Origin: Ruminococcus albus 7 = DSM 20455
Lineage (GTDB): Bacteria > Bacillota > Clostridia > Oscillospirales > Ruminococcaceae
Assembly: GCF_000179635.2 (NCBI RefSeq)
Contig: NC_014824.1
Coordinates: 90,001 to 122,000 of the forward strand
Length of the DNA stretch: 32,000 nt
Reading direction: 5' to 3'
Part shown: positions 5,066 through 17,449 of the stretch, one piece after another
Position numbering within the stretch: the first letter of the stretch is position 1
Layout of the letters: every line of letters starts with the position of its first letter
Notes under the pieces: generated by a model
The model's database searches: none
What the model saw: the letters and a program-made list of their open reading frames with translations, nothing else
Told to the model about the DNA's origin: nothing
Made by a program: the position numbers and the translations under genes

Positions 5066-5183
5066 CAGTTCAAAATTGATTCGATTTGATAAATGCAAAA
5101 CGGGACTGTTTCAACTAAGCAACAGCTCCTTCAAATTTGTCTCAACAAGAACAAGCTCTTTATTCTTAAAGGAGGAGGATCAT

Positions 5184-7859
5184 ATGAAAATTTTCAAACG
5201 CTTGACCGCTCTGTTTTGTACCGGTGGAATGCTCCTTATGTCAGCACCACACTGTGTTCTCACCTCTCATGCGGCACAAACAGTCAAGCTGTCACCGGAT
5301 AATACTTTTACCATAAACAATGGCGAATTTGAGGGCTGGGGTACATCTCTTTGCTGGTGGGCCAATCGCCTCGGCTATTCTGACTCGCTGGCACAGCAGG
5401 CAGCGGATGTGTTCTACGGTGATGAAGGTCTACGTCTTAATATTGCTCGCTTTAATATCGGCGGCGGTGATGATCCAAGCCACAATCATATCACACGAAC
5501 CGATTCCAATATGCCGGGATATACTAAGTATAGCAACGGAAAAATTACCTATGATTGGAGTGCTGATGCCAATCAGCGCAATGTGCTTATGCGGTCTATT
5601 CAGGCTGCCGGAGATGATATGATTGTGGAAATGTTCTCCAATTCGCCGCCCTATTACATGACGAAGAGCGGCTGTTCGTCAGGATCGGCAGATGCCAAAA
5701 GCAACAATCTGAAGGACGACCAATACGATGATTTTGCGCGGTATTTCGCGGAGGTTTGCTATCACTATCAGCACGACTGGGGCGTGAAGATCCAGAGCGC
5801 GGAAGCTATGAATGAGCCGTATACCAACTTCTGGAAGGCCAACAGCTACAAGCAGGAGGGCTGTCACTTCGATCAGGGAAGCTCGCAGTCAACCATGATC
5901 GTGGAGCTGCAAAAGGCGATGCGTGACAAGGGAATGGGCGATGTTATTCTTTGCGGTACGGATGAGACCTCCATTGACACGCAGATTAGCTCTTTTAACA
6001 AGCTCTCTAATGATGCCAAAAAAGCGATCGGTCGTATCGACACCCACACCTACGGCGGCAGCAAACGTGCCGAGCTAAAAAATATTGCCCTGTCCAACGG
6101 AAAAAATCTCTGGATGAGCGAGGTGGACAGCAGCGGCACGGCCGGGACGAATGCAGGTGAAATGAGTGCGGCACTCTGGCTGGCACAGCGTATCACGACC
6201 GATGTCAACGACATGAACGCATCGGCGTGGATCATGTGGCAGGTGATCGACAGCCACATTTCAAAGAACGGCTACAACGGCCGAAAGGATACCGGTATGG
6301 TGGACACGCAGAAGGGCTACTGGGGCGTGGCAGTTGCCAACCATGATGCAAATAAGATCGTTCTGACGAAGAAATACTACGCTTTCGGACAGTACTCGCG
6401 CTATATTCGCCCCGGTATGATTATGCTGAACTCCTCCGGCAATACTGTTGCCGCTTATGATCCTGAGACGGGACAGATCGTGGCTGTTTCCTACAATACA
6501 AGCGGCAGCAGTGCTGACATAACTTTCGATCTTTCAGACTTTGCTGAGGTTGGCAGCACGGCAAATGCGATCCGCACGAGCAAGAATGAGAACTGGAAGA
6601 ATGTGGGCACTATCAATCTAAACGGCAAAACGCTGAATGCAACCTTGCCCGGCAATTCCATCACAACGTTTGTCATTGAGGGAAATGGCAGTATAGGCGG
6701 CAATGAGATCAAGGTGCAGGCTGACAAGCTAAGCGGCTCTGACTCGTGGAAGCAAAATGCAGATACCGATTTCCACAAGGCTTTTGACGGCGACAACGCA
6801 ACATACTTCGACGGCACGAGAGTCGGCTGGGTACAGGCAGATCTGGGTGCGGTCTACGATCTGAGCGCACTTGCTTACTGCCCTCGTCAGAACTATGAAT
6901 ACCGTATGGTGGATGGCTATTTCGAGGTGTCGATGGACGGCACAGACTGGCAGAGCATACACACAATTAGTGAGAATCCCACATTTGCCATGCACAAAGT
7001 GAAACTTGAAAAGCCGATCACGGCACGTTATATCCGCTATGCAGTACCAGAGGGCAAGCCGCGCAACAGCTACAACACAAATGATGTTTATTGCTGTAAT
7101 GTAGCGGAAATCAAGCTCTATGGCACGCTGAATCCGGAGACGAGCTTTACAAAATTAGCGCCCGAAGCAACAAGCGGTACAGATTCGTGGAAGCAGCAGG
7201 AAGGCTACAATTACGGAAAGGCGTTTGATGGCGATACTGCAACCTACTTTGACGGTGTGGGTGCAGGCTGGGTACAGGCTGGTCTTGGGAAAATATGTGA
7301 GCTGAATGCGATCGCCTACACTCCCCGTAAGGGCTACGAAGCACGAATGGTGGACGGCTATTTCAGCGTTTCCGAGGATGGCACAAGCTGGCAGACGGTA
7401 CACACGATCGGCAGGATGCCCACATCGGACACACAGACCGTTATGCTCGATGCATCGGTGAAAGCAAGGTATATCCGCTACGCTGTTCCGGAGGGAAAGC
7501 CGAATAACGGCGTGAATACCGATGATGTGTACTGCTGCAATATTGCGGAGCTTGCGTTCTATGGCGCTGTACTGCCGAATGCGGTAATCAGCAACACTAT
7601 AAAAGTTGAATACAGCGAGAAATATCACCAGGTAAGATTCACATGGGATAAAGTCGAAGGCGCCGACAGATATGGAATTGCTGTATATCTTGCCGGCAAG
7701 TGGAGAGTTCAGGCGCAGAACATCACCGGTACGGTTTATACATCTCCCAAGAACCTGACACCCGGTAAGAAATACAGAGTCGCAATCGCTGCAAGGGTGA
7801 ACGGCAAATGGGATACCGCAAACGCTATCAAACATTCAGGTACCGTCACCATAAGATAA
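5184..7859 (+). CDS. Secreted glycoside hydrolase family 30 (clan GH-A) enzyme with two F5/8-type-C (CBM32-like) domains and a C-terminal Fn3-like module
   Basis: SD aaggagg, then ATG 5184, followed by a signal peptide. Motifs FEGWGTSLCWWANRLG, EAMNEPY (acid/base Glu) and LWMSEVD (nucleophile Glu). Two ~140-aa repeats: SWKQ...KAFDGD.ATYFDG...GWVQA.LG...ARYIRYAVPEGKP. Tail KVEYSEKYHQVRFTWDKVEGADRYGIAVYLAGKWRV...SGTVTIR. Confidence 0.9.
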   Translation: MKIFKRLTALFCTGGMLLMSAPHCVLTSHAAQTVKLSPDNTFTINNGEFEGWGTSLCWWANRLGYSDSLAQQAADVFYGDEGLRLNIARFNIGGGDDPSHNHITRTDSNMPGYTKYSNGKITYDWSADANQRNVLMRSIQAAGDDMIVEMFSNSPPYYMTKSGCSSGSADAKSNNLKDDQYDDFARYFAEVCYHYQHDWGVKIQSAEAMNEPYTNFWKANSYKQEGCHFDQGSSQSTMIVELQKAMRDKGMGDVILCGTDETSIDTQISSFNKLSNDAKKAIGRIDTHTYGGSKRAELKNIALSNGKNLWMSEVDSSGTAGTNAGEMSAALWLAQRITTDVNDMNASAWIMWQVIDSHISKNGYNGRKDTGMVDTQKGYWGVAVANHDANKIVLTKKYYAFGQYSRYIRPGMIMLNSSGNTVAAYDPETGQIVAVSYNTSGSSADITFDLSDFAEVGSTANAIRTSKNENWKNVGTINLNGKTLNATLPGNSITTFVIEGNGSIGGNEIKVQADKLSGSDSWKQNADTDFHKAFDGDNATYFDGTRVGWVQADLGAVYDLSALAYCPRQNYEYRMVDGYFEVSMDGTDWQSIHTISENPTFAMHKVKLEKPITARYIRYAVPEGKPRNSYNTNDVYCCNVAEIKLYGTLNPETSFTKLAPEATSGTDSWKQQEGYNYGKAFDGDTATYFDGVGAGWVQAGLGKICELNAIAYTPRKGYEARMVDGYFSVSEDGTSWQTVHTIGRMPTSDTQTVMLDASVKARYIRYAVPEGKPNNGVNTDDVYCCNIAELAFYGAVLPNAVISNTIKVEYSEKYHQVRFTWDKVEGADRYGIAVYLAGKWRVQAQNITGTVYTSPKNLTPGKKYRVAIAARVNGKWDTANAIKHSGTVTIR

Positions 7860-8337: not shown

Positions 8338-9507
8338 ATGCTGAACAGAATAGCACAAAAAGCGCTGCTTCGTCTTGCAGAGCAGTTCCCGATAGTAGGA
8401 ATCACAGGTCCAAGACAGAGTGGCAAATCTACGCTTACAAAGATCACCTTCCCCGACAAAAAGTATGTAACTTTTGATGATAAAAATATGCGTGAACTTG
8501 CAAAATCAAACCCCGCCGACTTTATTATGGCATTTCCAAATGGTGCCGTTATTGACGAAGCTCAAAAGGTGCCTGAGATATTTGATGCGCTTAAGCTTCA
8601 TGTTGACAGCGCTCCTTTCACACCGGGAAAATTCATTCTCACCGGTTCAAGCCAGTTCAGGCTTAGAAAGAATATGTCCGACAGCCTTGCAGGAAGGGCT
8701 GCTTTTCTGAAACTGCTCCCTTTTTCCATTAAAGAGCTTAAAGATGCTGACCTTCTGCCAAAGAACGCTTACGACCTTATTTTCGTAGGACAGTATCCTC
8801 CGCTTTTTGACAGTGAAAAGCATTATATTGCAGAAGACTGGTTTGAGAGCTATATCGACACTTATCTTGATCTAGATGTTAAAGACCAGATCAATGAGAG
8901 CAATCTGTCAACATTCAGAAAGTTCATTCAGATATGTGCTATATACAGCGGTCAGCTTCTTTCAATGGACAGCATAGCTAAGCAGATAGGTATTTCCCAA
9001 CCCACAGTAAAAAGCTGGCTGTCTATTCTTGAAAACTCATATATCATTCATTTGCTGGAGCCTGATACGAACAATCTTGGGCGTTCGATAGTAAAGACAC
9101 CAAAGCTGTATTTCGTCGATTCGGGACTGCTGTGTCATTTGTTAAGGTTGGAGAGCAAAGAAGATCTGCTTCTGAGCAAGTACAAGGGTGCTGTTGTTGA
9201 GACCTGTGCAGTAGCAGAGATGCTGAAAAACAGAATGAATCAGGCAAAAAAGCCGAATCTGACATTTTACAGAGACAGCAACGGTTTTGAGGTAGACACC
9301 ATAGCCGACTGGAAACACACATTTGCAGTAGAGATAAAAAGCTCAAGCGATGCGGAAGCAAAGCTGTCTGCAAACACTAAAAAGTATCTTACACTGCGAA
9401 ATGACGACAATGCCCATAATGCAGTATTCTATCTCGGTGATATCAGCATGACGATCAATGATACAATGTATGTCAGCTGGAAGGATTGGGGAGATCACCT
9501 TAATTAA
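8338..9507 (+). CDS. AAA+ ATPase with DUF4143 C-terminal domain (AAA_14/DUF4143 family)
   Basis: 389-aa ORF with SD gaggagg. Walker A GPRQSGKST and Walker B-like AVIDEAQ. The overall pattern is typical of the ATP-binding protein/DUF4143 family (from memory). Confidence 0.85.
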   Translation: MLNRIAQKALLRLAEQFPIVGITGPRQSGKSTLTKITFPDKKYVTFDDKNMRELAKSNPADFIMAFPNGAVIDEAQKVPEIFDALKLHVDSAPFTPGKFILTGSSQFRLRKNMSDSLAGRAAFLKLLPFSIKELKDADLLPKNAYDLIFVGQYPPLFDSEKHYIAEDWFESYIDTYLDLDVKDQINESNLSTFRKFIQICAIYSGQLLSMDSIAKQIGISQPTVKSWLSILENSYIIHLLEPDTNNLGRSIVKTPKLYFVDSGLLCHLLRLESKEDLLLSKYKGAVVETCAVAEMLKNRMNQAKKPNLTFYRDSNGFEVDTIADWKHTFAVEIKSSSDAEAKLSANTKKYLTLRNDDNAHNAVFYLGDISMTINDTMYVSWKDWGDHLN

Positions 9508-9638
9508 TCTGATCGAAATTTATTAAGGTTTAGATCCAACTCTACTCCATGTTATCAAGTAATAGAGCTGTTTTTATTATAGAAGGAATTTTTACGTGAT
9601 ATAAGCACTCTATAATAAAAAATATACCTACGGTTTAC

Positions 9639-9667
9639 TTGATTTTTTCTTGTAGATATGATATAAT
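9639..9667 (+). promoter_or_regulatory. Promoter of tRNA module 1
   Basis: TTGATT, 17-nt spacer, TGaTATAAT (extended -10). Confidence 0.65.
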
Positions 9668-9699
9668 GACCACAACATCAAAGAAAGGAGAAAACCGAG

Positions 9700-9828
9700 A
9701 TGAATAAGTTCACTGTTTCATATCTGTATAGCGAATCATTATTGAGCCTCGTCCTCGAATCGGAAGAGACTTCTTTTGTGCTGCGTACAGATAAAGTGGA
9801 TGAACATTTCGGGATTTCTTGTTTCTAA
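9700..9828 (+). CDS. Mini-ORF 1 (42 aa), candidate leader peptide: MNKFTVSYLYSESLLSLVLESEETSFVLRTDKVDEHFGISCF
   Basis: SD aaaggag lies 8 nt upstream of the ATG. The ORF lies between a consensus promoter and an intrinsic terminator. Codons 7-23 are almost exclusively Ser/Tyr/Leu/Glu. Confidence 0.6.
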   Translation: MNKFTVSYLYSESLLSLVLESEETSFVLRTDKVDEHFGISCF

Positions 9829-9851
9829 GTATTATTGATCCTTGTAAGTGA

Positions 9852-9886
9852 AACACCGTCTGTTTGCAGCAGGCGGTGTTTTTGTT
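9852..9886 (+). terminator. Intrinsic terminator / attenuator 1
   Basis: aacaccgtctg (9852-9862) pairs with caggcggtgtt (9870-9880). Loop tttgcag, followed by tttgtt. Confidence 0.75.
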
Positions 9887-9888
9887 AT

Positions 9889-9983
9889 GCCCATGTGTAT
9901 GAACGTTATCACCATAGTTGATAACTGGCATACATTTATGTTTTAGAAACAGGCTTTTTGGGGTTCGAGTCTCCCCACGGGTA
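9889..9983 (+). other. tRNA-like element (95 nt) with a canonical T-arm and acceptor end but no canonical anticodon arm; possibly a degenerate class-II tRNA
   Basis: T-arm tgggg-TTCGAGT-ctccc. Acceptor gcccatg/cacgggt has one A-C mismatch. Possible D-stem tatg/cata. I could not fold a 5-bp stem with a 7-nt anticodon loop. Confidence 0.3.
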
Positions 9984-9991
9984 TTATTTTT

Positions 9992-10066
9992 GCGGGATTG
10001 GCGGAACAGGCATACGCGACGGTCTCAAATACCGTTTTATTCAGGGTTCGACTCCCTGATTCCGCA
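9992..10066 (+). tRNA. tRNA with anticodon CAA (Leu) but a short (~6 nt) variable region
   Basis: Acceptor GCGGGAT/ATTCCGC plus A73. Leu-type D-arm TGGCGGAACAGGCATACGC. Anticodon stem ACGGT/ACCGT with loop CTCAAAT. T-arm CAGGG-TTCGACT-CCCTG. Total 75 nt. Confidence 0.7.
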
Positions 10067-10073
10067 TTTATAT

Positions 10074-10146
10074 GCTCTCGTAGACCAACGGCAGAGTGAA
10101 CGGACTTAAACCCCGTGTAGTGTGAGTTCGAATCTCACCGGGAGCA
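10074..10146 (+). tRNA. tRNA with anticodon UAA (Leu), class-I length, weak D-stem
   Basis: Acceptor GCTCTCG/CGGGAGC plus A73. Anticodon stem ACGGA/CCCGT with an A31-C39 mismatch, loop CTTAAAC. T-arm GTGAG-TTCGAAT-CTCAC. Only 2-3 bp of D-stem could be drawn. Confidence 0.55.
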
Positions 10147-10181
10147 TCAGGATCAATATACTTAGAAAGGAGATGTTTTCA

Positions 10182-10406
10182 ATGCCGGTGATAGACGTCA
10201 AAGCAACAGGAGCGAATATTAAAGCTATAATGAAAATGAAGGGCTTCAAGATCGCTGATGTTCAGGCAAGGTGCGGTTTCAATACTCCGCAGGCTATTTT
10301 CAAGTGGCTGCGTGGAGACGCTGTGCCAACTATAGATAATATGATAATCATAGCCGATATGTTCGGCGTGACTATCGATCAGATAGTTATAATCAAGAAG
10401 ATCTGA
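10182..10406 (+). CDS. Small XRE-family helix-turn-helix protein (74 aa), embedded between tRNA genes
   Basis: SD aaaggag, then ATG 10182. Sequence MPVIDVKATGANIKAIMKMKGFKIADVQARCGFNTPQAIFKWLRGDAVPTIDNMIIIADMFGVTIDQI. Roughly half of its residues match the protein at 11429-11659 by eye. Confidence 0.8.
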   Translation: MPVIDVKATGANIKAIMKMKGFKIADVQARCGFNTPQAIFKWLRGDAVPTIDNMIIIADMFGVTIDQIVIIKKI

Positions 10407-10430
10407 CTGTTATTGCGGTAACAGTCATAA

Positions 10431-10502
10431 GGCTGCATCGTCTAATGGTCAGGACACAAGGTTTTCAACCTTGAAACGTGGGTTCAACTCCCACTGCGGT
10501 CA
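10431..10502 (+). tRNA. tRNA-Glu (UUC)
   Basis: Acceptor GGCTGCA/TGCGGTC. D-arm GTCTAATGGTCAGGAC. Anticodon stem CAAGG/CCTTG with loop TTTTCAA. T-arm GTGGG-TTCAACT-CCCAC. Confidence 0.8.
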
Positions 10503-10567
10503 TTAATTCATCCGTATATGACATCAGCTATATTATAAGTATTCAAAAAAAATATTTCCATCCTTAA

Positions 10568-10596
10568 TTGACTTTTCGGGGATTTTCTTATATAAT
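10568..10596 (+). promoter_or_regulatory. Promoter of the gene at 10648-11094
   Basis: TTGACT, 17-nt spacer, TATAAT. Confidence 0.55.
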
Positions 10597-10647
10597 TAAA
10601 TAAGAATATTGTATTACTTATTTGAGATAATGAAAGGATGTTTTCTT

Positions 10648-11094
10648 ATGTCCATAGATAAAAGAACCGAAATGATCCTAAAAAAAGAGTCATTGACTAT
10701 ATTCAATCAGTTTTGTTCAAAACTGCCATCGGAGTCTTTAGGTCTGTTAATGATGTATCTGCAAAAGTTCAATGACGATAATCCTGATAACGGAACCATT
10801 GTTTTTACTAAAAAAGAATATGAAAAGAAGCTGGGAAATGAAGAAATATCAATCGATGAAATTCAGGACGGCATTCCAGATTTACTAGGTCCGGTAAGAT
10901 TTAAAGGCGATATTCAAATAATGTTTTCTATGTTCATAAGCATTAATATCAGGAAAATAAGCAATGAATATTCAATATTTATGACCTGCAGTGATATTGC
11001 AAAGGATTATATCTTTACCGATCCAAATGTTGCAAAGTATAATTTTATAGACGAGATAAAGAGAAGAATAGACGAGTTAACAAGTATAATGTAG
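10648..11094 (+). CDS. Hypothetical protein (148 aa); only a vague resemblance to winged-helix replication-initiator N-terminal domains
   Basis: SD aaagga, then ATG 10648 (MSIDKRTEMILKKESLTIFNQF...). No motif I can name with confidence. Confidence 0.55.
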   Translation: MSIDKRTEMILKKESLTIFNQFCSKLPSESLGLLMMYLQKFNDDNPDNGTIVFTKKEYEKKLGNEEISIDEIQDGIPDLLGPVRFKGDIQIMFSMFISINIRKISNEYSIFMTCSDIAKDYIFTDPNVAKYNFIDEIKRRIDELTSIM

Positions 11095-11107
11095 CTTACA
11101 AAGCTAC

Positions 11108-11136
11108 TTGACAATTCTCTTTATGAGTGTTATAAT
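11108..11136 (+). promoter_or_regulatory. Promoter of tRNA module 2
   Basis: TTGACA, 17-nt spacer, TGtTATAAT (consensus, extended -10). Confidence 0.7.
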
Positions 11137-11196
11137 CAGTTACAACAAGAGGGGAGCAACGATCTCCCGAAATTATATTACGAAAGGGTGAAAACA

Positions 11197-11334
11197 ATGA
11201 ATTCTATCATGAACAATACTGTTGTCAGATCATATGATGATTACCAGTGCTTCTTTAGCTTTAGTTTTGATTGGCAAGACGAAGGCTTATTTGTGCTGCA
11301 TACGAACACCGGTAATTGTTCAGTTCAAAGATAG
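11197..11334 (+). CDS. Mini-ORF 2 (45 aa), candidate leader peptide: MNSIMNNTVVRSYDDYQCFFSFSFDWQDEGLFVLHTNTGNCSVQR
   Basis: SD aaagggtg. The ORF lies between a consensus promoter and an intrinsic terminator. Codons 13-28 read YDDYQCFFSFSFDWQD. Confidence 0.6.
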   Translation: MNSIMNNTVVRSYDDYQCFFSFSFDWQDEGLFVLHTNTGNCSVQR

Positions 11335-11366
11335 AGTTTATTGACCATCTTCTGAGAGAATATGAC

Positions 11367-11407
11367 CGCCTGTATGTAGTGCAAACTCATACAGGCGATT
11401 TTTTATT
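11367..11407 (+). terminator. Intrinsic terminator / attenuator 2
   Basis: Perfect 10-bp stem cgcctgtatg / catacaggcg with an 11-nt loop, followed by attttttatt. Confidence 0.8.
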
Positions 11408-11428
11408 CTATCGGAAGGTGGTATTATT

Positions 11429-11659
11429 ATGACTGAAGAGATGCCTGTCATAAATATGACAGCGACAGGTTCCAATATAAAGACTCTTATAAAAGCAAAA
11501 GGTTTTAAAGTGACAGAGCTTCAGAACATTCTGGTGTTCAACACACCTCAGTCCATATTCAAATGGATGAGAGGGGAGTCCATACCCTCTATCGACAATC
11601 TGGTGATTCTGGCACATATACTGAATGTCACCATTGATGAGATAATAATCCTTAACTAA
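11429..11659 (+). CDS. Small XRE-family helix-turn-helix protein (76 aa), paralog of 10182-10406
   Basis: SD aaggtgg. Sequence MTEEMPVINMTATGSNIKTLIKAKGFKVTELQNILVFNTPQSIFKWMRGESIPSIDNLVILAHILNVTIDEI. Confidence 0.8.
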   Translation: MTEEMPVINMTATGSNIKTLIKAKGFKVTELQNILVFNTPQSIFKWMRGESIPSIDNLVILAHILNVTIDEIIILN

Positions 11660-11684
11660 TACGTCCTGTTCATTCAGGACACAC

Positions 11685-11758
11685 GGCTCCGTAGTTTAAC
11701 CGGCTAAAACACCGGCCTGTCACGTCGGAGAGCGCGGGTTCAAGTCCCGCCGGAGTCG
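11685..11758 (+). tRNA. tRNA-Asp (GUC)
   Basis: Acceptor GGCTCCG/CGGAGTC plus G73. Anticodon stem CCGGC/GTCGG with loop CTGTCAC. T-arm GCGGG-TTCAAGT-CCCGC. Confidence 0.85.
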
Positions 11759-11764
11759 TCATAA

Positions 11765-11835
11765 TTCCGTTTCGTCTAGTGGTAGGACATCGGTTTCTGA
11801 CACCGAAAACGGGAGTTCAAATCTCTCAGCGGAAA
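11765..11835 (+). tRNA. tRNA-Gln (CUG)
   Basis: Acceptor TTCCGTT/AGCGGAA (U1-A72). Anticodon stem TCGGT/ACCGA with loop TTCTGAC. T-arm GGGAG-TTCAAAT-CTCTC. Confidence 0.8.
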
Positions 11836-11841
11836 TAATTT

Positions 11842-11912
11842 GACTGTGTAGCCAAGTGGAAAGGCTGTCGGCTGCAACCCGACGAGCGTAGGTTCGATCC
11901 CTATCACAGTCT
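11842..11912 (+). tRNA. tRNA-Cys (GCA)
   Basis: Acceptor GACTGTG/CACAGTC plus U73. Anticodon stem GTCGG/CCGAC with loop CTGCAAC. T-arm GTAGG-TTCGATC-CCTAT. Confidence 0.85.
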
Positions 11913-11922
11913 TTAATCACAT

Positions 11923-11995
11923 GCCTCTGTAGCTCAGTTGGTAGAGCGTATGCCTGAAGAGCATAGCGTCGCAAGTTCGATTCTTGCCGGAGGCA
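11923..11995 (+). tRNA. tRNA-Phe (GAA)
   Basis: Acceptor GCCTCTG/CGGAGGC. D-arm TAGCTCAGTTGGTAGAGC. Anticodon stem TATGC/GCATA with loop CTGAAGA. T-arm GCAAG-TTCGATT-CTTGC. Confidence 0.9.
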
Positions 11996-12017
11996 CTTGT
12001 AAAAGTACAAATGTTTT

Positions 12018-12046
12018 TTGAATATCACAAATGTTATCTGTACTAA
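12018..12046 (+). promoter_or_regulatory. Possible internal promoter between tRNA-Phe and tRNA-Gln(UUG)
   Basis: TTGAAT, 17-nt spacer, TACTAA. A weak hairpin ttgta-aaag-tacaa plus a T-run (11997-12019) precedes it. Confidence 0.3.
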
Positions 12047-12048
12047 AT

Positions 12049-12120
12049 TTCCGTTTCGTCTAACAGGCAGGACAACAGACTTTGACTCTGTCAATGGGAG
12101 TTCGATCCTCTCAACGGAAG
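12049..12120 (+). tRNA. tRNA-Gln (UUG)
   Basis: Acceptor TTCCGTT/AACGGAA plus G73. Anticodon stem ACAGA/TCTGT with loop CTTTGAC. T-arm GGGAG-TTCGATC-CTCTC. Confidence 0.85.
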
Positions 12121-12127
12121 CTAATAA

Positions 12128-12204
12128 GTCTCTATTACAAATTATGTATTGAAATTCTATCGGGTATCATCTTTAGAATTCAAGGAGTAGTTTGTAATAG
12201 AGAT
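12128..12204. repeat. 77-nt bipartite hairpin in the spacer between tRNA-Gln(UUG) and tRNA-Trp
   Basis: Outer arms gtctctattacaaa (12128-12141) / tttgtaatagagat (12191-12204). Inner arms aattcta / tagaatt. Confidence 0.6.
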
Positions 12205-12213
12205 GATAGAAAT

Positions 12214-12285
12214 AGGAGAATAGTTCAATGGCTAGAATGACGGTCTCCAAAACCGTAGATCTCAGTTCGACTCTGAGTTCTCCTG
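12214..12285 (+). tRNA. tRNA-Trp (CCA)
   Basis: Acceptor AGGAGAA/TTCTCCT plus G73. Anticodon stem ACGGT/ACCGT with loop CTCCAAA. T-arm CTCAG-TTCGACT-CTGAG. Confidence 0.85.
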
Positions 12286-12302
12286 TCTATACTACAGGTT
12301 TA

Positions 12303-12331
12303 TTGAAATCTGTACTAAGTTATGTTATAAT
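12303..12331 (+). promoter_or_regulatory. Promoter of tRNA module 3
   Basis: TTGAAA, 17-nt spacer, TGtTATAAT (extended -10). Confidence 0.7.
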
Positions 12332-12363
12332 GTCATTAAAGAAATCAAGAAAGGAAGTTCATT

Positions 12364-12456
12364 ATGAAAAACACAGTATTTGCATTCTCATATTCATATA
12401 GTTATTCAAGCGTTGTTCAGAAGAATAAGGCTCGTTTGGCTATGCGTGAATGTTGA
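12364..12456 (+). CDS. Mini-ORF 3 (30 aa), candidate leader peptide: MKNTVFAFSYSYSYSSVVQKNKARLAMREC
   Basis: SD aaaggaag lies 7 nt upstream of the ATG. The ORF lies between a consensus promoter and an intrinsic terminator. Codons 9-16 read SYSYSYSS (tca tat tca tat agt tat tca agc). Confidence 0.6.
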   Translation: MKNTVFAFSYSYSYSSVVQKNKARLAMREC

Positions 12457-12482
12457 TACTGCTTGATGATAAGCTTCAGCAT

Positions 12483-12520
12483 ATACCGTTTGGCTTTCGG
12501 GTCAGGCGGTATTTTTATTT
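12483..12520 (+). terminator. Intrinsic terminator / attenuator 3
   Basis: ataccgtttggc pairs with gtcaggcggtat (12 bp including G-U pairs). Loop tttcgg, followed by ttttatttgtt. Confidence 0.75.
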
Positions 12521-12527
12521 GTTATTC

Positions 12528-12613
12528 GGGAGAGTCACCCAGCGGCGAGGGCAGCGGTCCGTAAAACCGTGACATTAGAAACATCGAAGGTTCGAGTCCT
12601 TCCTCTCCCACCA
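12528..12613 (+). tRNA. tRNA-Tyr (GUA), class II, CCA encoded, C at position 33
   Basis: Acceptor GGGAGAG/CTCTCCC, then A and CCA. Anticodon stem GCGGT/ACCGT with loop CCGTAAA. Long variable arm. T-arm GAAGG-TTCGAGT-CCTTC. Confidence 0.8.
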
Positions 12614-12617
12614 ATAT

Positions 12618-12703
12618 GAGCAGGTACAGAGAATCGGCAAACTCGGCGGTCTGTAAAACCGTTGCTTTATGCGTAGTGGGGTCGGCACCCACCCTGCCCA
12701 CCA
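12618..12703 (+). tRNA. Second tRNA-Tyr (GUA), divergent (A2-C71 mismatch, non-canonical T-loop), CCA encoded
   Basis: Acceptor GAGCAGG/CCTGCCC, then A and CCA. Anticodon loop CTGTAAA. T-arm GTGGG-GTCGGCA-CCCAC lacks the TTCRA signature. Confidence 0.6.
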
Positions 12704-12706
12704 TAT

Positions 12707-12798
12707 GTTGGCATAACCCTAACTGGTAAGGGATCGTCTTGGAAAGGCGAGAGTAATCGGAGTTTTCCGATGTTTCGGTTCGAATCCGAATGCCGACG
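12707..12798 (+). tRNA. tRNA-Ser (GGA)
   Basis: Acceptor GTTGGCA/TGCCGAC plus G73. Anticodon stem TCGTC/GGCGA with loop TTGGAAA. Long variable arm atcgga-gttt-tccgat. T-arm TTCGG-TTCGAAT-CCGAA. Confidence 0.85.
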
Positions 12799-12804
12799 TT
12801 ATGC

Positions 12805-12890
12805 GCTGTGTTAGTGTAATTGGTAACACACTGCTCCCGAAAAGCAGCGTCCTTTTGGACTTACAGGTTCGAGTCCTGTACACAGCGCCA
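12805..12890 (+). tRNA. tRNA-Ser (CGA), CCA encoded
   Basis: Acceptor GCTGTGT/ACACAGC, then G and CCA. Anticodon stem CTGCT/AGCAG with loop CCCGAAA. Variable arm gtcc-tttt-ggac. T-arm ACAGG-TTCGAGT-CCTGT. Confidence 0.8.
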
Positions 12891-12893
12891 TAT

Positions 12894-12988
12894 GGTCACA
12901 TAAGCCTAATTGGTAAGGCAGCGGTTTGCTAAACCGTGAGTAATCGGGTTATTCTGATGTCCGAGTTCAAATCTCGGTGTGGCCGCCA
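12894..12988 (+). tRNA. tRNA-Ser (GCU), CCA encoded
   Basis: Acceptor GGTCACA/TGTGGCC, then G and CCA. Anticodon stem GCGGT/ACCGT with loop TTGCTAA. Long variable arm. T-arm CCGAG-TTCAAAT-CTCGG. Confidence 0.85.
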
Positions 12989-12991
12989 TCT

Positions 12992-13078
12992 GCCGTGTAT
13001 GCAGGCTGGCTCTGCAAACTGTCTTGAAAACAGTATACCGTAAAAAACGGTACGTGGGTTCGATTCCCTCACGCGGCG
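12992..13078 (+). tRNA. tRNA-Ser (UGA)
   Basis: Acceptor GCCGTGT/ACGCGGC plus G73. Anticodon stem ACTGT/ACAGT with loop CTTGAAA. Variable arm taccg-taaaaaa-cggta. T-arm GTGGG-TTCGATT-CCCTC has one mismatch. Confidence 0.8.
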
Positions 13079-13123
13079 CTATAATAAACTATATTCATTA
13101 GAATGTGATTTTAGCAAAAAGAA

Positions 13124-13560
13124 AGGGGGCTACCACGCAGTAGCCCCACGATCTTTGAGCCGAAGCTCAATTGTCCATTGCCTTATACCGTCTCGCCTTA
13201 CGGTATTGCCCAAATTATAGTATATCACTTCGGGCGATTGTTGTCAAGTGTTTTGCTTTAAGAAAGATAATATTTTCTGTTTTGGGGTATATTACAATCA
13301 AAGGGATACCAATGACCTTTATCCTCTTTCAGCAAGAAGACTCCCACCTCTTAGGTGGGAGATGAATTGCGTTTCTTACTCACTGGACTTTTCACTATGC
13401 TCATAGCATAAAATATTCAGTCGAATAAAATGTAGAGGCTAAAATACAGTTGATTTGGATAATAAAGCATATTCTTGCTTTACAAGAGGAGCGATTTTTT
13501 TAACAGGGCGAGAACACACGCTACTTTAGCTGTGGGATGAAGCCCTGTTTTTTATTTTTT
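13124..13560 (+). other. Hairpin-rich non-coding stretch containing orphan IS200/IS605-type end hairpins
   Basis: Hairpins: gggggctac/gtagcccc (13124-13147), ataccgt/acggtat (~13186-13206), ctcccacc-tctta-ggtgggag (13341-13361) and aacagggc...gccctgtt plus a T-run (13502-13560). The last encloses a degenerate cacgct-actt-tagc-tgtg hairpin. Confidence 0.4.
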
Positions 13561-13678
13561 ATAAATTTTCTTGTATAATAATATTGTAGATAATAATTAA
13601 TAACTGGAGGTCAGACAGATCAAATAATACTACTAATATAACACTATGGAACATAAAGCCATAAAAGGAGTGAACACT

Positions 13679-14797
13679 ATGGCAAACAAAGCATTTAAAT
13701 TCAGAATATACCCAAATAACGAGCAAAAGGTTTTGTTTGCCAAAACCTTCGGCTGTGTGAGATTGGTATATAACTATTGGTTATACAAAAAGATCAAGCA
13801 GTATAAAGAATATGAGACAACTTTAAATTACAATGCTTGTGCCAAAGAAATGGCTGAACTTAAGAAAATGGAGAAATACTCATTCTTACGGGAAGTGGAC
13901 AGCGTATCATTGCAGCAGTCGCTTCGACACCTGGATACAGCGTTTCAGAACTTCTATAAACAGCCTAAAACAGGATTTCCCAGGTTCAAATCAAAAAAAT
14001 GTAAAAAGAACAGCTATTCTACCGTTTGTATCAATGGTAACATAGCCATATCCAATGGATACTTGAAATTACCTAAAGTCGGACAAGTCAAAGTAAAACA
14101 GCACAGGAACATTCCTAATGAATATGTTCTCAAGTCTGTGACAGTAAGTCAGACTCCAAGCGGAAAATACTATGCAAGTATTCTGTATGAGTACGAAAAC
14201 CAAGTACAGGAACAGGAACTGCATGACTTCTTAGGGCTTGACTTTTCGATGCACGAGCTGTACAAAGACAGCAACGGCAATGAACCGGCTTACCCCGGAT
14301 ACTACAGAAGAGCTGAAAAAAAGCTAAAAAGAGAACAAAAAAAACTTTCTCTTATGCAGAAAGGCTCTAAAAACCGTGATAAACAACGTATCAAGGTTGC
14401 TAAAATGCATGAGAAAGTTGCAAATCAACGAAAGGACTTTCTACATAAACAGTCAAGACAGATAGCCAATGCCTATGATTGTGTATGTATAGAAGATCTA
14501 AACATGCAAGCAATGTCTCAGGCACTTAAATTCGGCAAGTCGGTTTCAGATAACGGCTGGGGAATGTTTGTAACATTCCTGAAGTACAAACTGGAAGAGC
14601 AAGGCAAAAGGCTTGTAAAGATAGATAAATTCTTTGCGAGCAGTCAGACTTGTTCGTGCTGTGGATACATCAATAAGGAAACAAAGAACCTTGCTATAAG
14701 AGCATGGGACTGTCCCGAATGCGGAACTCACCATAACAGAGATGTAAATGCTGCAATAAATATAAGAAATGAAGGTATGCGTATAGCATTAGCGTAG
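13679..14797 (+). CDS. tnpB: TnpB RNA-guided endonuclease (IS200/IS605 OrfB family), apparently intact
   Basis: SD aaaggag, then ATG 13679 (MANKAFKFRIYPNNEQ...). RuvC residues are present: LGLDFS (D), CIEDLN (E), HNRDVNAAINI (D). Zinc finger CSCCG...CPECG. Confidence 0.9.
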   Translation: MANKAFKFRIYPNNEQKVLFAKTFGCVRLVYNYWLYKKIKQYKEYETTLNYNACAKEMAELKKMEKYSFLREVDSVSLQQSLRHLDTAFQNFYKQPKTGFPRFKSKKCKKNSYSTVCINGNIAISNGYLKLPKVGQVKVKQHRNIPNEYVLKSVTVSQTPSGKYYASILYEYENQVQEQELHDFLGLDFSMHELYKDSNGNEPAYPGYYRRAEKKLKREQKKLSLMQKGSKNRDKQRIKVAKMHEKVANQRKDFLHKQSRQIANAYDCVCIEDLNMQAMSQALKFGKSVSDNGWGMFVTFLKYKLEEQGKRLVKIDKFFASSQTCSCCGYINKETKNLAIRAWDCPECGTHHNRDVNAAINIRNEGMRIALA

Positions 14798-16123: not shown

Positions 16124-17449
16124 ATGCAGATATATACGACTTACAGCGTTAAGATCAAGCATTACAACAACATCTTTAAAGATACCGTTATCGTATACAG
16201 ACATGCTGTAGATTACCTTATCAGCGTTTGTCTGGATCATTGGGATAACATTGTTACATTCAAAGGGGTGAGTAGACTCACATATATTGAAACACTGATC
16301 CATGCTACAAAAGATAATCCCGATCCAATTTATGATTTTGATGCCAAATTCTATAAGATGCCAAGCTATCTGCGCCGTGGTGCAATCAACGAGGCTATAG
16401 GCAAGGTATCATCTTACAAAAGCAATCTCGATAACTGGATCAAAGATCCGGTCGGAAGAGAACCATCGCATCCAAAAGCAGGTTATTCATTCCCGTCTAT
16501 GTATCGTACAGGAATGTACAATCAGACCGGTGATTATACTGCCCAGATCAAAGTCTACATCCGTAATACATGGGACTGGATAACGATAAACCTTAAAAAG
16601 TCTGATATGGATTATATATACAGACATTGCCGCTTACGCAAACAATGCGCTCCAACACTTCAAAAACGAGGCAAGGAGTGGTTTTTGGACTTTCCGTTTG
16701 AGGAAAAGGTCAAACTTGCAGATATATCTGTGTATGAACAGACCATTGTTGCTGTAGATCTTGGTATCAACACTGCCGCTACGGTTTCCGTAATGCGTTC
16801 AGATGGCACTATTCTTGGAAGGCATTTTTGTAAGCTTACCAAAGAAACAGACCATCTGATGCATAGCATTAACCGTATAAAAAAAGCTCAGCAGCATGGT
16901 AACTATAAAACACCAAGGCTTTGGGCAAAAGCCAAAGGCATCAATCACGACATTGCCATAAAAACTGCGAACTGCATCGTAAATATAGCTGTTCTTTATA
17001 ATGCAGATGTTATTGTATTTGAGCATTTAGACAAGAACGGTAAGGTCCGCGGTTCTAAAAAGCAGAAACTCAAGCTGTGGCGCAGTCAGGAAGTTCAGTC
17101 TATTGTAACGAATAAAGCTCACAGACTGGGTATGAGAGTAAGCCATATCTGTGCATGGAATACGTCACGCCTTGCCTACGATGGCAGTGGTTTTGTACTT
17201 CGTGGTAAATTCGGTGGTTTCAATACCTATGAGCTATGCAAATTTCAAAATGGCAAGTCCTACAACTGTAATCTATCTGCTTCGTATAATATTGGGGCAA
17301 GATATTTCATACGTGAAATATTAAAATCCTTGGATGAGAATTCAAGGTTGCTCATTGAGGCAAAAGTACCTCAATGCAGTAAGAGAAGCACCTGCACGTT
17401 CTCTACCTTAGTTAACCTGAATGCGGAAATTATTGCTCAAACAGCATAA
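16124..17449 (+). CDS. TnpB-related protein (441 aa) with an atypical RuvC-III / zinc-finger region
   Basis: SD ggaggga, then ATG 16124. RuvC-I IVAVDLGIN and RuvC-II DVIVFEHLD are present. The position aligning to RDVNAAINI reads CNLSASYNI (Asn instead of Asp). The CxxC...CxxC cysteines are replaced by LAYDGSG ... CKFQNGKSYNC. Confidence 0.75.
   Translation: MQIYTTYSVKIKHYNNIFKDTVIVYRHAVDYLISVCLDHWDNIVTFKGVSRLTYIETLIHATKDNPDPIYDFDAKFYKMPSYLRRGAINEAIGKVSSYKSNLDNWIKDPVGREPSHPKAGYSFPSMYRTGMYNQTGDYTAQIKVYIRNTWDWITINLKKSDMDYIYRHCRLRKQCAPTLQKRGKEWFLDFPFEEKVKLADISVYEQTIVAVDLGINTAATVSVMRSDGTILGRHFCKLTKETDHLMHSINRIKKAQQHGNYKTPRLWAKAKGINHDIAIKTANCIVNIAVLYNADVIVFEHLDKNGKVRGSKKQKLKLWRSQEVQSIVTNKAHRLGMRVSHICAWNTSRLAYDGSGFVLRGKFGGFNTYELCKFQNGKSYNCNLSASYNIGARYFIREILKSLDENSRLLIEAKVPQCSKRSTCTFSTLVNLNAEIIAQTA

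Follow-up and report, generated by a model that had tools for sequence, protein, structure and literature searches.

We have identified an island of tRNA genes in Ruminococcus albus 7 that is built from three modules, each of which is probably a ribosome-mediated transcription attenuator whose sensor codons form an index of the tRNAs that it controls. The island lies within a window of 32,000 nucleotides (contig NC_014824.1, positions 90,001 to 122,000), in which every module is laid out as a promoter, a mini-ORF led by a Shine-Dalgarno (SD) sequence, a strong terminator and then the cargo; the island holds 14 tRNA genes overall. All coordinates below are window positions on the + strand. An initial annotation had proposed that leader peptides attenuate tRNA genes here. 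That proposal is strongly supported by comparison of related loci, in which leader codons match the cargo and an exclusive antiterminator is conserved, but its account of the cargo was incomplete. The codon-tRNA match in many gut bacteria points to an undescribed feedback switch that would respond to slowed decoding of these codons by supplying additional tRNAs or an RNA ligase.

ARAGORN called 14 tRNAs in the region with the anticodons first assigned to them, and Rfam backs all of these: 13 score as tRNA, and the remaining one, Ser-UGA, gives a match below threshold that resembles tRNA-Sec. Module 1 contains tRNA-Leu(CAA) and tRNA-Leu(UAA) (9991-10148) and tRNA-Glu(UUC) (10431-10502). Module 2 contains tRNA-Asp(GUC), Gln(CUG), Cys(GCA), Phe(GAA), Gln(UUG) and Trp(CCA) (11684-12287), and module 3 contains tRNA-Tyr(GUA), Ser(GGA), Ser(CGA), Ser(GCU) and Ser(UGA) (12528-13079). 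The second Tyr tRNA of the initial annotation (12618-12703) is probably degenerate, as it has a poor D-arm and T-loop and is called only at 85% of the ARAGORN threshold, neither ARAGORN at default settings nor Infernal at E<=1 giving a call. The window has one other degenerate tRNA-like sequence, of the Leu(UAG) type (9911-9982), which is seen only with ARAGORN -ps85, aligns to Leu(CAG/UAG) genes of relatives and is probably a pseudogene. An ORF of 148-161 aa with its own promoter, overlooked initially, lies between the first two modules.

Three near-consensus extended -10 promoters had been described, and their sigma-70 matches are 10/12 (TTGATT, 9639-9667), 12/12 (TTGACA, 11108-11136) and 11/12 (TTGAAA, 12303-12331), each with a 17-nt spacer and TG-n-TATAAT. 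A match of at least 10/12 together with an extended -10 is present in 65/73 unique related upstream regions. Operator-like palindromes abut the -35 of promoter 1 (TATACC-TAC-GGTTTA(C), 9623-9638) and of promoter 3 (TATACT-ACA-GGTTTA, 12288-12302), and a perfect palindrome of another sequence (GTAGCTT-ACA-AAGCTAC, 11091-11107) directly adjoins promoter 2 on its upstream side. The operator-like motif immediately upstream of the -35 is kept in nearly all modules and occurs at 114 of the 212 fetched loci. It is a candidate binding site for a co-encoded XRE helix-turn-helix (HTH) protein.

Each promoter is followed by a mini-ORF with an SD of the AAGGAG/AAAGGGTG type, and the ORF lengths and peptides quoted in the initial annotation agree with ours. 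Leader ORF 1 (9700-9828, 42 codons) has its regulatory codon run at about 9721-9771 (YLYSESLLSLVLESEET), leader ORF 2 (11197-11334, 45 codons from the ATG) at about 11230-11286 (SYDDYQCFFSFSFDWQDEG), and leader ORF 3 (12364-12456, 30 codons) has the run SYSYSYSS at 12388-12411. Variable-region codons that can be read by the module's own tRNAs number 6/17, 12/19 and 8/8 in leaders 1, 2 and 3, against background rates in the window's long ORFs of 5.7%, 17.6% and 13.6% (P = 2.5e-4, 1.3e-5 and 1.2e-7, respectively). Leader 2 has a cognate codon for all six of its cargo tRNAs, with CAG and CAA covering the Gln pair. Leader 1, whose peptide is identical in R. albus AR67, fits poorly, and the tRNAs matching three of its Leu codons are lost or degenerate in the window. 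In relatives, the full Leu(CAG, UAA, CAA, AAG) cargo corresponds to its CUG, UUA, UUG and CUC codons, and Glu(UUC, CUC) to its GAA and GAG codons.

The comparison of mini-ORF composition with downstream anticodons against shuffled controls, suggested at the outset, was carried out on over 200 related loci (212 fetched) of gut and rumen Firmicutes, and the match held at the amino-acid, codon, frame, replication and cross-lineage levels. The variable middle of the mini-ORF tracks the downstream tRNA set throughout these loci. Among 58 unique leaders, the fraction of cargo-cognate residues was 0.283, compared with 0.196 when permuted (z = 9.8, 0/20000), and 12 cluster representatives gave 0.309 versus 0.214 (z = 4.9, 0/20000); these permutation statistics, like those that follow, are partly affected by shared ancestry. 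For each of L, E, H, Q, C, F, D and W, the variable region contains more of the residue if the cargo includes the corresponding tRNA (P = 1e-6 to 1e-10). The codon-level match was 0.453 versus 0.251 permuted (0/5000) and was specific to the reading frame, as shifted frames and the opposite strand gave 0.09-0.12. The result was replicated with 29 further leaders (z = 7.1, 0/10000). In 13 modules drawn from at least five divergent lineages with quite different tRNA sets, 92% of cargo tRNAs had a cognate codon in their own leader, versus 68% permuted (0/50000).

Individual loci illustrate this correspondence. Solobacterium L077 has a 16-tRNA array, and its leader contains the matching rare codons AUA, AGA, CUA and CCU. 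In a pair of Anaerovoracaceae loci, the run of L064 carries an additional AGA codon (N-R-F, versus N-F in L074), and of the two only L064 includes tRNA-Arg(UCU) in its cargo. Four Lys codons are found in the leader of L081, which precedes Phe, Lys, Glu and Asp, and a ICKQHRHEEKRFWFCQERQF leader in L083 precedes Trp, Gln, Lys, Glu, Glu, Phe and Cys. Module 2 of L083 (Asp, Pro, Ile) is a poor fit and is without a clear codon run. Ser and Tyr codons occur in every leader irrespective of the cargo, a further point on which the initial proposal was incomplete.

Behind each mini-ORF lies a strong hairpin (stem energy -16 to -19 kcal/mol) with a U-tract, as initially described. These putative terminators are located at 9852-9886 (13-bp stem, hairpin 9852-9880), 11367-11407 (hairpin 11367-11397) and 12483-12520 (hairpin 12483-12512), in a region with 14 terminator-like sites versus 2.9 expected. 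The tRNA-Tyr gene begins 8 nt past the U-tract of terminator 3, leaving no space for a further promoter, and the SD of an HTH gene sits just past terminator 2. Thus, expression of the cargo must cross the terminators.

An alternative to each terminator can be recognized. In leader 1, region 2 (9782-9799, UGCGUACAGAUAAAGUGG, LRTDKV codons), the predicted 5' strand of the antiterminator, is the best complement in the leader to the terminator 5' arm (dG -12.2, z -2.8). The equivalent strand in leader 2 (11288-11305, UAUUUGUGCUGCAUACGA, LFVLHT codons) forms a 13-bp helix with the terminator 5' arm that is 90.5% paired across 42 sequences, compared with at most 63% in slid registers. The conserved VLHT codons would accordingly double as the 5' strand of the antiterminator, and in the leaders the conserved peptide segment coincides with this RNA helix strand. 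Support for the predicted helix comes mostly from conserved sequence, with one clearly compensatory pair in the Ruminococcus alignment (CG in 30 and UA in 10 of the 42 sequences). Upstream of terminator 2, an anti-SD strand (11344-11362, ACCAUCUUCUGAGAGAAUA) is predicted to form an outer stem with 11404-11422, the site of the HTH SD. The region 2 predicted for leader 3 (12430-12455) is weaker than those of leaders 1 and 2 (dG -8.8, z -1.7); the modelled probability that the 5' arm is paired is 0.72 with the ribosomal A site at codons 8-21 and falls after codon 22.

When the RNA downstream of a stalled ribosome was modelled, the antiterminator appeared only with the A site inside the codon run. 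The best complement to the terminator 5' arm lies right behind the codon run in nearly all of 76 leaders, with one clear exception (L018), and cognate codons cluster at codons -18 to -2 ahead of region 2. The sequences at this site are unlike between lineages. Full leaders fold far below shuffled sequences (z = -4.0 to -7.6). Equilibrium predictions favour the terminator in every case, so the attenuation model rests on co-transcriptional kinetics.

The initial annotation regarded tRNAs alone as the cargo. The related loci almost always carry a small XRE HTH gene in the cargo too, and two such genes, paralogous and previously overlooked, are present in the window: HTH gene 1 (10182-10406, 74 aa; Pfam HTH_3, E = 9.5e-10) inside module 1, whose placement between Leu and Glu tRNAs is conserved, and HTH gene 2 (11429-11659, 76 aa) inside module 2. 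Modules without an HTH gene are also found (window module 3, L002 and L030). At six loci the leader-terminator-HTH unit drives an Rnl-type RNA ligase in place of tRNAs, and at several Lachnospiraceae loci the HTH gene is followed by neither tRNA nor ligase.

We propose the following mechanism. Transcription would start at the strong sigma-70 promoter, where the XRE protein of the module probably binds the palindrome abutting the -35, and a ribosome would read the leader ORF. With an ample supply of all the charged tRNAs needed for the codon run, the ribosome would move over or past the VLHT segment and keep region 2 from the terminator 5' arm, allowing the terminator to form and transcription to stop. 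Slow decoding of any run codon would stall the ribosome 2-18 codons upstream of region 2, which could then pair with the terminator 5' arm as the antiterminator, also freeing the SD of the HTH gene. RNA polymerase would continue past the terminator to transcribe the HTH gene and spare tRNA genes, or in some genomes the Rnl-type RNA ligase instead. Decoding would recover with the new tRNAs, completing a negative feedback circuit. If the leader is not translated at all, region 1 would pair with region 2 and the terminator would form. Coupling of transcription and translation is reportedly poor in Bacillus subtilis, according to a 2020 report by Johnson et al., so leader-peptide attenuation in a Firmicute would need RNA polymerase pausing.

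In nature the switch most likely responds to specific tRNAs being lost or damaged, or to translational stress in general, rather than to starvation for amino acids, because more tRNA or RNA ligase would help in the former and not in the latter. Conceivably, yet with low probability, the same attenuator senses uncharged tRNA during starvation, the signal of trp and his leaders, and its output is an XRE regulator of a starvation programme, with the tRNAs serving, for example, to raise uncharged-tRNA signalling via T-boxes and the stringent response. A stalled ribosome cannot tell an uncharged from a missing tRNA, and the HTH gene is the most constant cargo, standing without tRNA or ligase in the Lachnospiraceae loci above. 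However, the runs mix up to 13 amino acids with isoacceptor-specific codons (CAG/CAA; CUG/UUA/UUG/CUC; AUA; AGA) and mirror the cargo tRNA species, not a biosynthetic pathway. No amino-acid biosynthesis or transport genes were seen as cargo, some modules lack the HTH gene, and the alternative RNA ligase cargo points to RNA damage.

Less probable still is a role of the leaders as general detectors of translational stress or of antibiotics that target the ribosome, comparable to the erm, cat, bmrB and vmlR leaders, with the spare tRNAs as a stress regulon and the codon match secondary. Any slowed elongation inside the run would give read-through, and antibiotics that inhibit translation induce the Anabaena trn array with rtcB (PMC8421152, PMC10272220). 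In drug-sensing leaders the arrest peptide is conserved, whereas here the sensing segment is the most variable and varies with the cargo, which contains no resistance gene; such sensing is compatible with attenuation by tRNA shortage, as an added input and not in its place. Chance readily yields small ORFs, and T-boxes rather than leader peptides are usual in Firmicutes, but it is highly improbable that the mini-ORFs are non-regulatory (small proteins or chance ORFs, with hairpins ending upstream transcripts) or that the leader RNA binds tRNA in a T-box-like manner, given that the SD, ATG and ORF are kept across families, most gaps within the ORF in alignment A2 have, as assessed by eye, a length divisible by three, the conserved peptide segment is an RNA helix strand, the codon match is frame-specific, the terminator-cargo gap is too short for a promoter, and no T-box or other Rfam family matched the leaders at E<=1.

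Leader-peptide control of tRNA genes was not found in the literature searched. The closest concept is the stress-induced trn operon of Anabaena, a translational-stress regulon composed of a tRNA array and rtcB (PMC8421152, PMC10272220). The tRNA or RNA ligase cargo of the leader units parallels this regulon, whereas Anabaena uses a protein repressor for its control.

ARAGORN called 14 tRNA genes on the plus strand of the window between 9991 and 13079, and Rfam backed all 14: 12 at the gathering threshold, Ser-GGA as an additional tRNA match in an E-value search, and Ser-UGA as a near-threshold, tRNA-Sec-like match. The island thereby packs 14 called and two degenerate tRNAs into 3.1 kb. One of the degenerate copies is a tRNA-Leu(UAG) at 9911-9982, where relatives have Leu(CAG) or Leu(UAG). 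The other is a tRNA-Tyr-like sequence at 12618-12703 that was recovered only with a relaxed ARAGORN threshold and was absent from the Infernal results, so it is probably degenerate; the initial annotation had listed it as a second tRNA-Tyr, and its other 14 tRNAs stand. Read by eye, tRNA-Tyr(GUA) at 12528-12613 has the anticodon loop C-C-G-U-A-A-A, with C33 instead of the near-universal U33, and the degenerate copy has U33. This altered loop might matter if island tRNAs evade an anticodon nuclease.

The division of the island (9639-13078) into three modules of promoter, short leader ORF, terminator and tRNAs was confirmed. The near-consensus promoters 1, 2 and 3 scored 10/12, 12/12 and 11/12, each with the TG of an extended -10, and are the top three extended -10 promoters on the plus strand of the region. 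The leader ORFs translate into the peptides originally reported, and 23-32 nt past each lies a strong 13-14 bp hairpin (stem energy between -16 and -19 kcal/mol) that leads into a U-tract. Apart from the second tRNA-Tyr, the earlier description was accurate for the elements that it named but overlooked the degenerate tRNA-Leu(UAG), an ORF between modules, and two genes for XRE-family HTH proteins (Pfam HTH_3), a paralogous pair at 10182-10406 in module 1 and 11429-11659 in module 2. The inter-module ORF of 148-161 aa (10609/10648-11094), inserted between modules 1 and 2, is without a Pfam or NCBIfam match and has its own promoter at 10568-10596 (11/12); related loci, among them L001, L002, L005 and L025, have only ~100 nt at this position.

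Neighbors of the island include LRR/DUF285 surface proteins, an AAA/DUF4143 ATPase, TnpB genes and an IS110 transposase, surroundings that look like bacterial chromosome. Near and distant searches of the island DNA against phages returned tRNA-level matches only. A TnpB/IS605 OrfB gene (13646-14797) lies immediately downstream, and a second OrfB-like gene and the IS110 transposase (minus strand) follow farther on (listed positions 16124-17449 and 23697-24593), placing the island in a transposon-rich stretch flanked by LRR/DUF285 surface-protein genes.

Close relatives of the HTH protein were confined to rumen and gut Firmicutes, R. albus and R. flavefaciens among them. Near-identical modules occur in the R. 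albus strains AR67 and KH2T6 (L019, L020, L055 and L073). Scanning GTDB species genomes with an HTH alignment recovered 79 loci. Most have a tRNA cluster within ~30 nt after the HTH gene, and most have a strong terminator ~65 nt ahead of the HTH start with an SD-led ORF of 30-55 codons just before it. The leader ORF opens with a conserved N-terminus (MNAIMNNA... or MKKFTM...); its highly variable middle, hereafter the codon run, leads into a conserved (F)VLHT or VLLRT segment. An SD-led ORF between promoter and cargo is kept in more than 70 unique leaders, and 65 of 73 unique upstream regions contain a sigma-70 promoter of at least 10/12 with an extended -10. Membership of the leader family was assigned by explicit curation, as a strict peptide-motif filter discards true leaders. 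In Anaerovoracaceae, an upstream ORF beginning MEGIYTTSV... was ruled out as a leader, since no terminator follows it and it resembles a real small protein; the true leaders sit farther upstream. Five loci of this family (L060, L062, L064, L065 and L079) have a conserved ORF of 50-68 aa (MEGIYTTSVSTATLDEAPMAYKSLEDIIDVIEESVDVIEVLRPIFNYKAS) between the leader terminator and the HTH gene (L064 9780-9932, for example), which resembles a genuine small protein and would be an additional component in that lineage. Many Ligilactobacillus salivarius megaplasmids encode an HTH homologue of 46% identity. The single such locus inspected (L080; megaplasmid NZ_CP089851, 124218-124499) has a hairpin and U-tract upstream of the gene and no detectable leader ORF or tRNAs; the HTH family is therefore wider than the attenuator system.

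The initial annotation had asked whether leader composition tracks the downstream anticodons better than permuted controls, and it does. Across 58 unique leaders, the fraction of residues cognate to the cargo was 0.283 compared to 0.196 after permutation (z = 9.8, 0/20000), and the signal persisted when leaders were collapsed into 12 clusters by single linkage at 60% identity (0.309 compared to 0.214; z = 4.9, 0/20000). It was replicated in 29 new leaders drawn from metagenome and IMG/VR scans (0.274 compared to 0.171; z = 7.1, 0/10000). At the codon level, 0.453 of variable-region codons are readable by cargo anticodons, compared to 0.251 when permuted (0/5000) and 0.09-0.12 in the +1 and +2 frames and on the opposite strand, so the match is frame-specific. 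Cognate codons cluster at positions -18 to -2 ahead of the conserved segment. Each of L, E, H, Q, C, F, D and W is far more numerous in the variable region of leaders whose cargo includes the corresponding tRNA (P = 1e-6 to 1e-10); the effect is weaker for Y and S because these residues are present in every leader.

For leaders 1, 2 and 3 of the window, tRNAs of the same module can read 6/17, 12/19 and 8/8 run codons, against backgrounds of 5.7%, 17.6% and 13.6%, and 38 of the 44 are readable by some island tRNA (background 37%). The match extends to isoacceptors: leader 2 has both CAG and CAA, matching its two Gln tRNAs, and the Leu codons of leader 1 (CUG, UUA, UUG and CUC) correspond to the four Leu isoacceptors of the complete module 1 in relatives.

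Divergent lineages follow the same rule with other sets of tRNAs. In L077, a Solobacterium locus, the leader MKVRMIRTLNYCMHEPQLSISFDHDFFSTYSASVLIRQ is followed by a terminator, an HTH gene and 16 tRNAs, 13 of whose anticodons have a cognate codon among leader codons 2-32, including the rare AUA, AGA, CUA and CCU. Two Anaerovoracaceae loci, L074 and L064, share the run ...ICVQNFICEQDLHIIDKEN... ahead of Asn, Glu, Gln, Gln, Asp, Trp, Ile, Glu, His, Cys, Phe and Ile tRNAs; the L064 run has an extra AGA codon, and its cargo has a tRNA-Arg(UCU) that L074 lacks. A second leader in L074, also found in L072 of the same family (MLYL.F..K..N.E.KPQG.DLMGR), precedes Gly, Leu, Pro, Tyr, Ser, Arg, Lys, Thr and Met. 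On L083, an IMG/VR contig, module 1 (LSSSYVLYLSLLLD) precedes Tyr, four Leu and two Ser, and module 4 (ICKQHRHEEKRFWFCQERQF) precedes Trp, Gln, Lys, Glu, Glu, Phe and Cys; no clear codon run was found in module 2 (Asp, Pro, Ile). The contig carries 24 tRNAs and at least three leader modules, and encodes a 500-aa DUF2828/DUF7788/vWA protein amid the tRNA clusters (4874-6376). The leader of L081, a phage-labelled human faecal scaffold, has four Lys codons ahead of Phe, Lys, Glu and Asp. Over 13 divergent modules, the leader contains a cognate codon for 92% of the tRNAs in its own cargo, compared to 68% when permuted (0/50000), and the fraction of cognate codons is 0.43 compared to 0.29 (0/50000).

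Full leaders fold far below shuffled sequences (z = -4.0 to -7.6), and their minimum-energy structures pair the codon-run region with the conserved segment and form the terminator. Equilibrium folding with a ribosome mask gave the terminator in every case, as is expected for attenuators, and a single-ribosome mask on the whole leader left a 5'-3' closing helix in place. Since the equilibrium fold always gives the terminator, we restricted the fold to RNA that lies past a stalled ribosome and ends at the terminator loop, a state in which the 3' arm has yet to be transcribed. Under this model, a long-range helix between the conserved segment and the terminator 5' arm is predicted for A-site positions within the codon run, and is lost when the ribosome arrives at codon 27-31 (leaders 1 and 2) or ~22 (leader 3).

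Conservation points to the same helix. In a 42-sequence alignment, the 13-bp antiterminator (UGCUGCRYACAG with CUGURUGCAGUA) is 90.5% paired compared to at most 63% in slid registers, with a single compensatory pair (CG in 30 sequences, UA in 10). Terminator and outer stem are 87.5% paired, and nine pairs have changed on both sides. The site best complementary to the terminator 5' arm falls right after the codon run in nearly all of 76 leaders, L018 being the one clear exception, and the pairing sequences vary by lineage (GAUAUAAGUGGA in Lachnospiraceae, GAAAUGAAUAAAC in L081 and CACCC/GGGUG in L143). As the complementary site keeps its place though its sequence differs between lineages, the conserved VLHT motif in the peptide is best interpreted at the RNA level, as region 2, which would be the 5' strand of the antiterminator. 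The outer stem is predicted to hide the HTH Shine-Dalgarno (AAAGGUGGU) against ACCAUCUU, and the antiterminator fold to free it. In module 3, tRNA-Tyr starts 8 nt past the terminator, leaving no space for a separate promoter, so the cargo would be expressed only by read-through. As modelled, the modules share the region 1, 2, 3, 4 logic of the trp and his attenuators.

A palindrome, TATACY-N3-RGTTTA, adjoins the -35 of promoters 1 and 3 and recurs in 114 of 212 fetched loci, modules without an HTH gene included, at a distance of ~100 nt upstream from the leader ATG. It is the obvious candidate for the operator of the co-encoded XRE protein, for which the near-consensus promoters suggest repression, as reset or feedback. 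The -35 of promoter 2 adjoins a different perfect palindrome, GTAGCTT-ACA-AAGCTAC (11091-11107), which overlaps the stop codon of the upstream ORF; it occupies the place of TATACC-N3-GGTTTA in the other modules and could be a diverged operator or a mere hairpin.

The cargo is not always tRNA. The HTH gene is the sole cargo in several Lachnospiraceae loci, and in a set of six loci (L009, L018, L023, L049, L051 and L057) a 351-aa RNA ligase replaces the tRNAs after the leader-terminator-HTH unit. The ligase matches the Pfam PHA02142 OB-fold and RNA_ligase families and, below the trusted cut-off, TIGR02306 (DRB0094 type); it is of Rnl/DRB0094 type, and the L049 copy is at 10243-11298. Codons for Asn, Ile, Asp, Ser, Gln and Lys abound in the leaders of the ligase loci; Ruminococcus islands lack tRNAs for most of the amino acids in this set other than Ser. 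Adjoining the L049 module on the minus strand is a 509-aa protein (11456-12985) whose HipA_C match (E = 1.5e-4) falls short of the Pfam cut-off. Kinases of the HipA type inactivate aminoacyl-tRNA synthetases, from which codon-specific stalling would result, but this match is too weak to build on.

Taken together, the comparative codon-tRNA match and the conserved predicted antiterminator strongly support the hypothesis of leader-peptide attenuation of the tRNA modules, as originally proposed from the DNA alone. The outputs would be spare tRNAs and the XRE regulator, with an RNA ligase in some genomes. As the natural trigger we favor tRNA loss or damage over general translational stress or starvation, on account of the ligase cargo and the isoacceptor-level codon match. 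A broader reading, which we advance tentatively and consider somewhat short of an even prospect, is that the modules form a codon-addressable tRNA-damage response. Each leader peptide would monitor a defined set of tRNA species as a multiplexed sensor, and depletion of any one of them by a tRNase toxin, an anticodon-nuclease defense system or a bacteriocin would fire the switch; the fired switch would express replacement tRNAs or the repair ligase, together with the XRE regulator that resets the promoters. As a cassette of immunity or counter-defense, the system would move by horizontal transfer between gut and rumen anaerobes and also onto phage-like contigs.

If attenuation is confirmed, this would be the first case for tRNA genes and for an RNA ligase; no report of either was found in full-text literature searches, whose coverage is incomplete, so that this absence is no proof. 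Decoding speed at given codons would feed back directly on the supply of the tRNAs concerned, bacteria could keep inducible, individually addressed sets of spare tRNAs, and supernumerary tRNA arrays would have a mechanism for silencing and waking. Backup and repair of tRNA would be joined in one regulatory family, converging with the TrcR regulon of Anabaena, and ribosome-mediated attenuation would reach Clostridia and their relatives. In practical terms, the leader peptide reads out its cargo and could help to annotate such islands, and the modules may be natural, compact biosensors of the availability of chosen tRNAs.

Among known leaders, the drug-sensing ones (erm, cat, bmrB, vmlR) have a conserved arrest motif and a resistance gene as cargo, whereas variation in the leaders studied here is greatest in the sensing segment, which covaries with the cargo, in which Pfam searches of HTH genes and ligase cargo identified no resistance gene. 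T-box riboswitches are likewise found in Firmicutes, read tRNA status through codon-anticodon logic and choose between terminator and antiterminator. They bind one uncharged tRNA directly, without a ribosome, and control synthetase or amino-acid genes, whereas the elements described here contain an SD-led ORF, and their signal is frame-specific and spans many codons. The T-box covariance model (RF00230) had no match in 9500-13300 at the gathering threshold or at E<=1, nor did any Rfam leader family (His, Trp, Leu, Thr and others) match this interval; for the leaders, no match to any Rfam family was obtained even at E<=1.

Known ribosome-mediated attenuators control amino-acid operons (trpL, hisL, leuL, thrL, ilvL, pheL) and pheST (pheM), and the modules show no relationship to them in sequence or in Rfam. 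Like them, the modules have a promoter-proximal, SD-led short ORF with a regulatory, cargo-cognate codon run and then an intrinsic terminator before the cargo; in silico only, they also have a mutually exclusive antiterminator, favored when the ribosome stalls in the run and blocked by an advanced ribosome, and region 1:2 pairing that would lead to termination without translation. They differ in that the genes behind the terminator are for tRNAs, a small XRE regulator or an RNA ligase rather than for biosynthetic enzymes or a synthetase, in that the run mixes many amino acids and isoacceptor codons to mirror 2-16 tRNAs, and in that the ORF usually extends 10-17 codons past region 2. Their hosts are Clostridia, Erysipelotrichia and related Firmicutes, in which ribosome-mediated attenuation is uncommon. 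We consider the modules best filed as ribosome-mediated attenuation in a new form, with sensor codons that index a tRNA set.

The island shares with mycobacterial and phage tRNA array units and L-arrays a dense set of extra tRNA genes tied to mobile DNA. By the definition of an array unit in Tran et al. 2016 (20 or more tRNA genes at no fewer than two per kb; PMC4758250), it is dense enough but, with 14 tRNAs, too small. It would also differ in being divided into separately switched modules. The excerpts of the array literature covered here describe no leader-peptide attenuator for such arrays, and an anti-defense role has been suggested for the mycobacterial ones (PMC12803027).

The nearest concept looks to be the trn operon of Anabaena sp. 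PCC 7120, a silent array of 26 tRNA genes that is induced by translational stress and co-regulated with rtcB by the RHH repressor TrcR, which acts on tandem 9-nt direct repeats over the -10 and transcription start site (PMC8421152, PMC10272220). No mention of a leader peptide or attenuator was found there. Both systems comprise horizontally spreading supernumerary tRNAs, here proposed to be silent by default and on when translation is impaired; both have co-regulation with an RNA ligase thought to repair tRNA (PMC8421152, PMC10272220), strong sigma-70-type promoters and a small DNA-binding protein, which in our case is a presumed repressor. The regulator here is an XRE HTH_3 protein with a palindrome upstream of the -35 instead of the RHH TrcR, the ligase is of Rnl/DRB0094 type instead of RtcB, and codon-addressed modules take the place of a single 26-gene array. 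The two systems look convergent in function and are different in mechanism.
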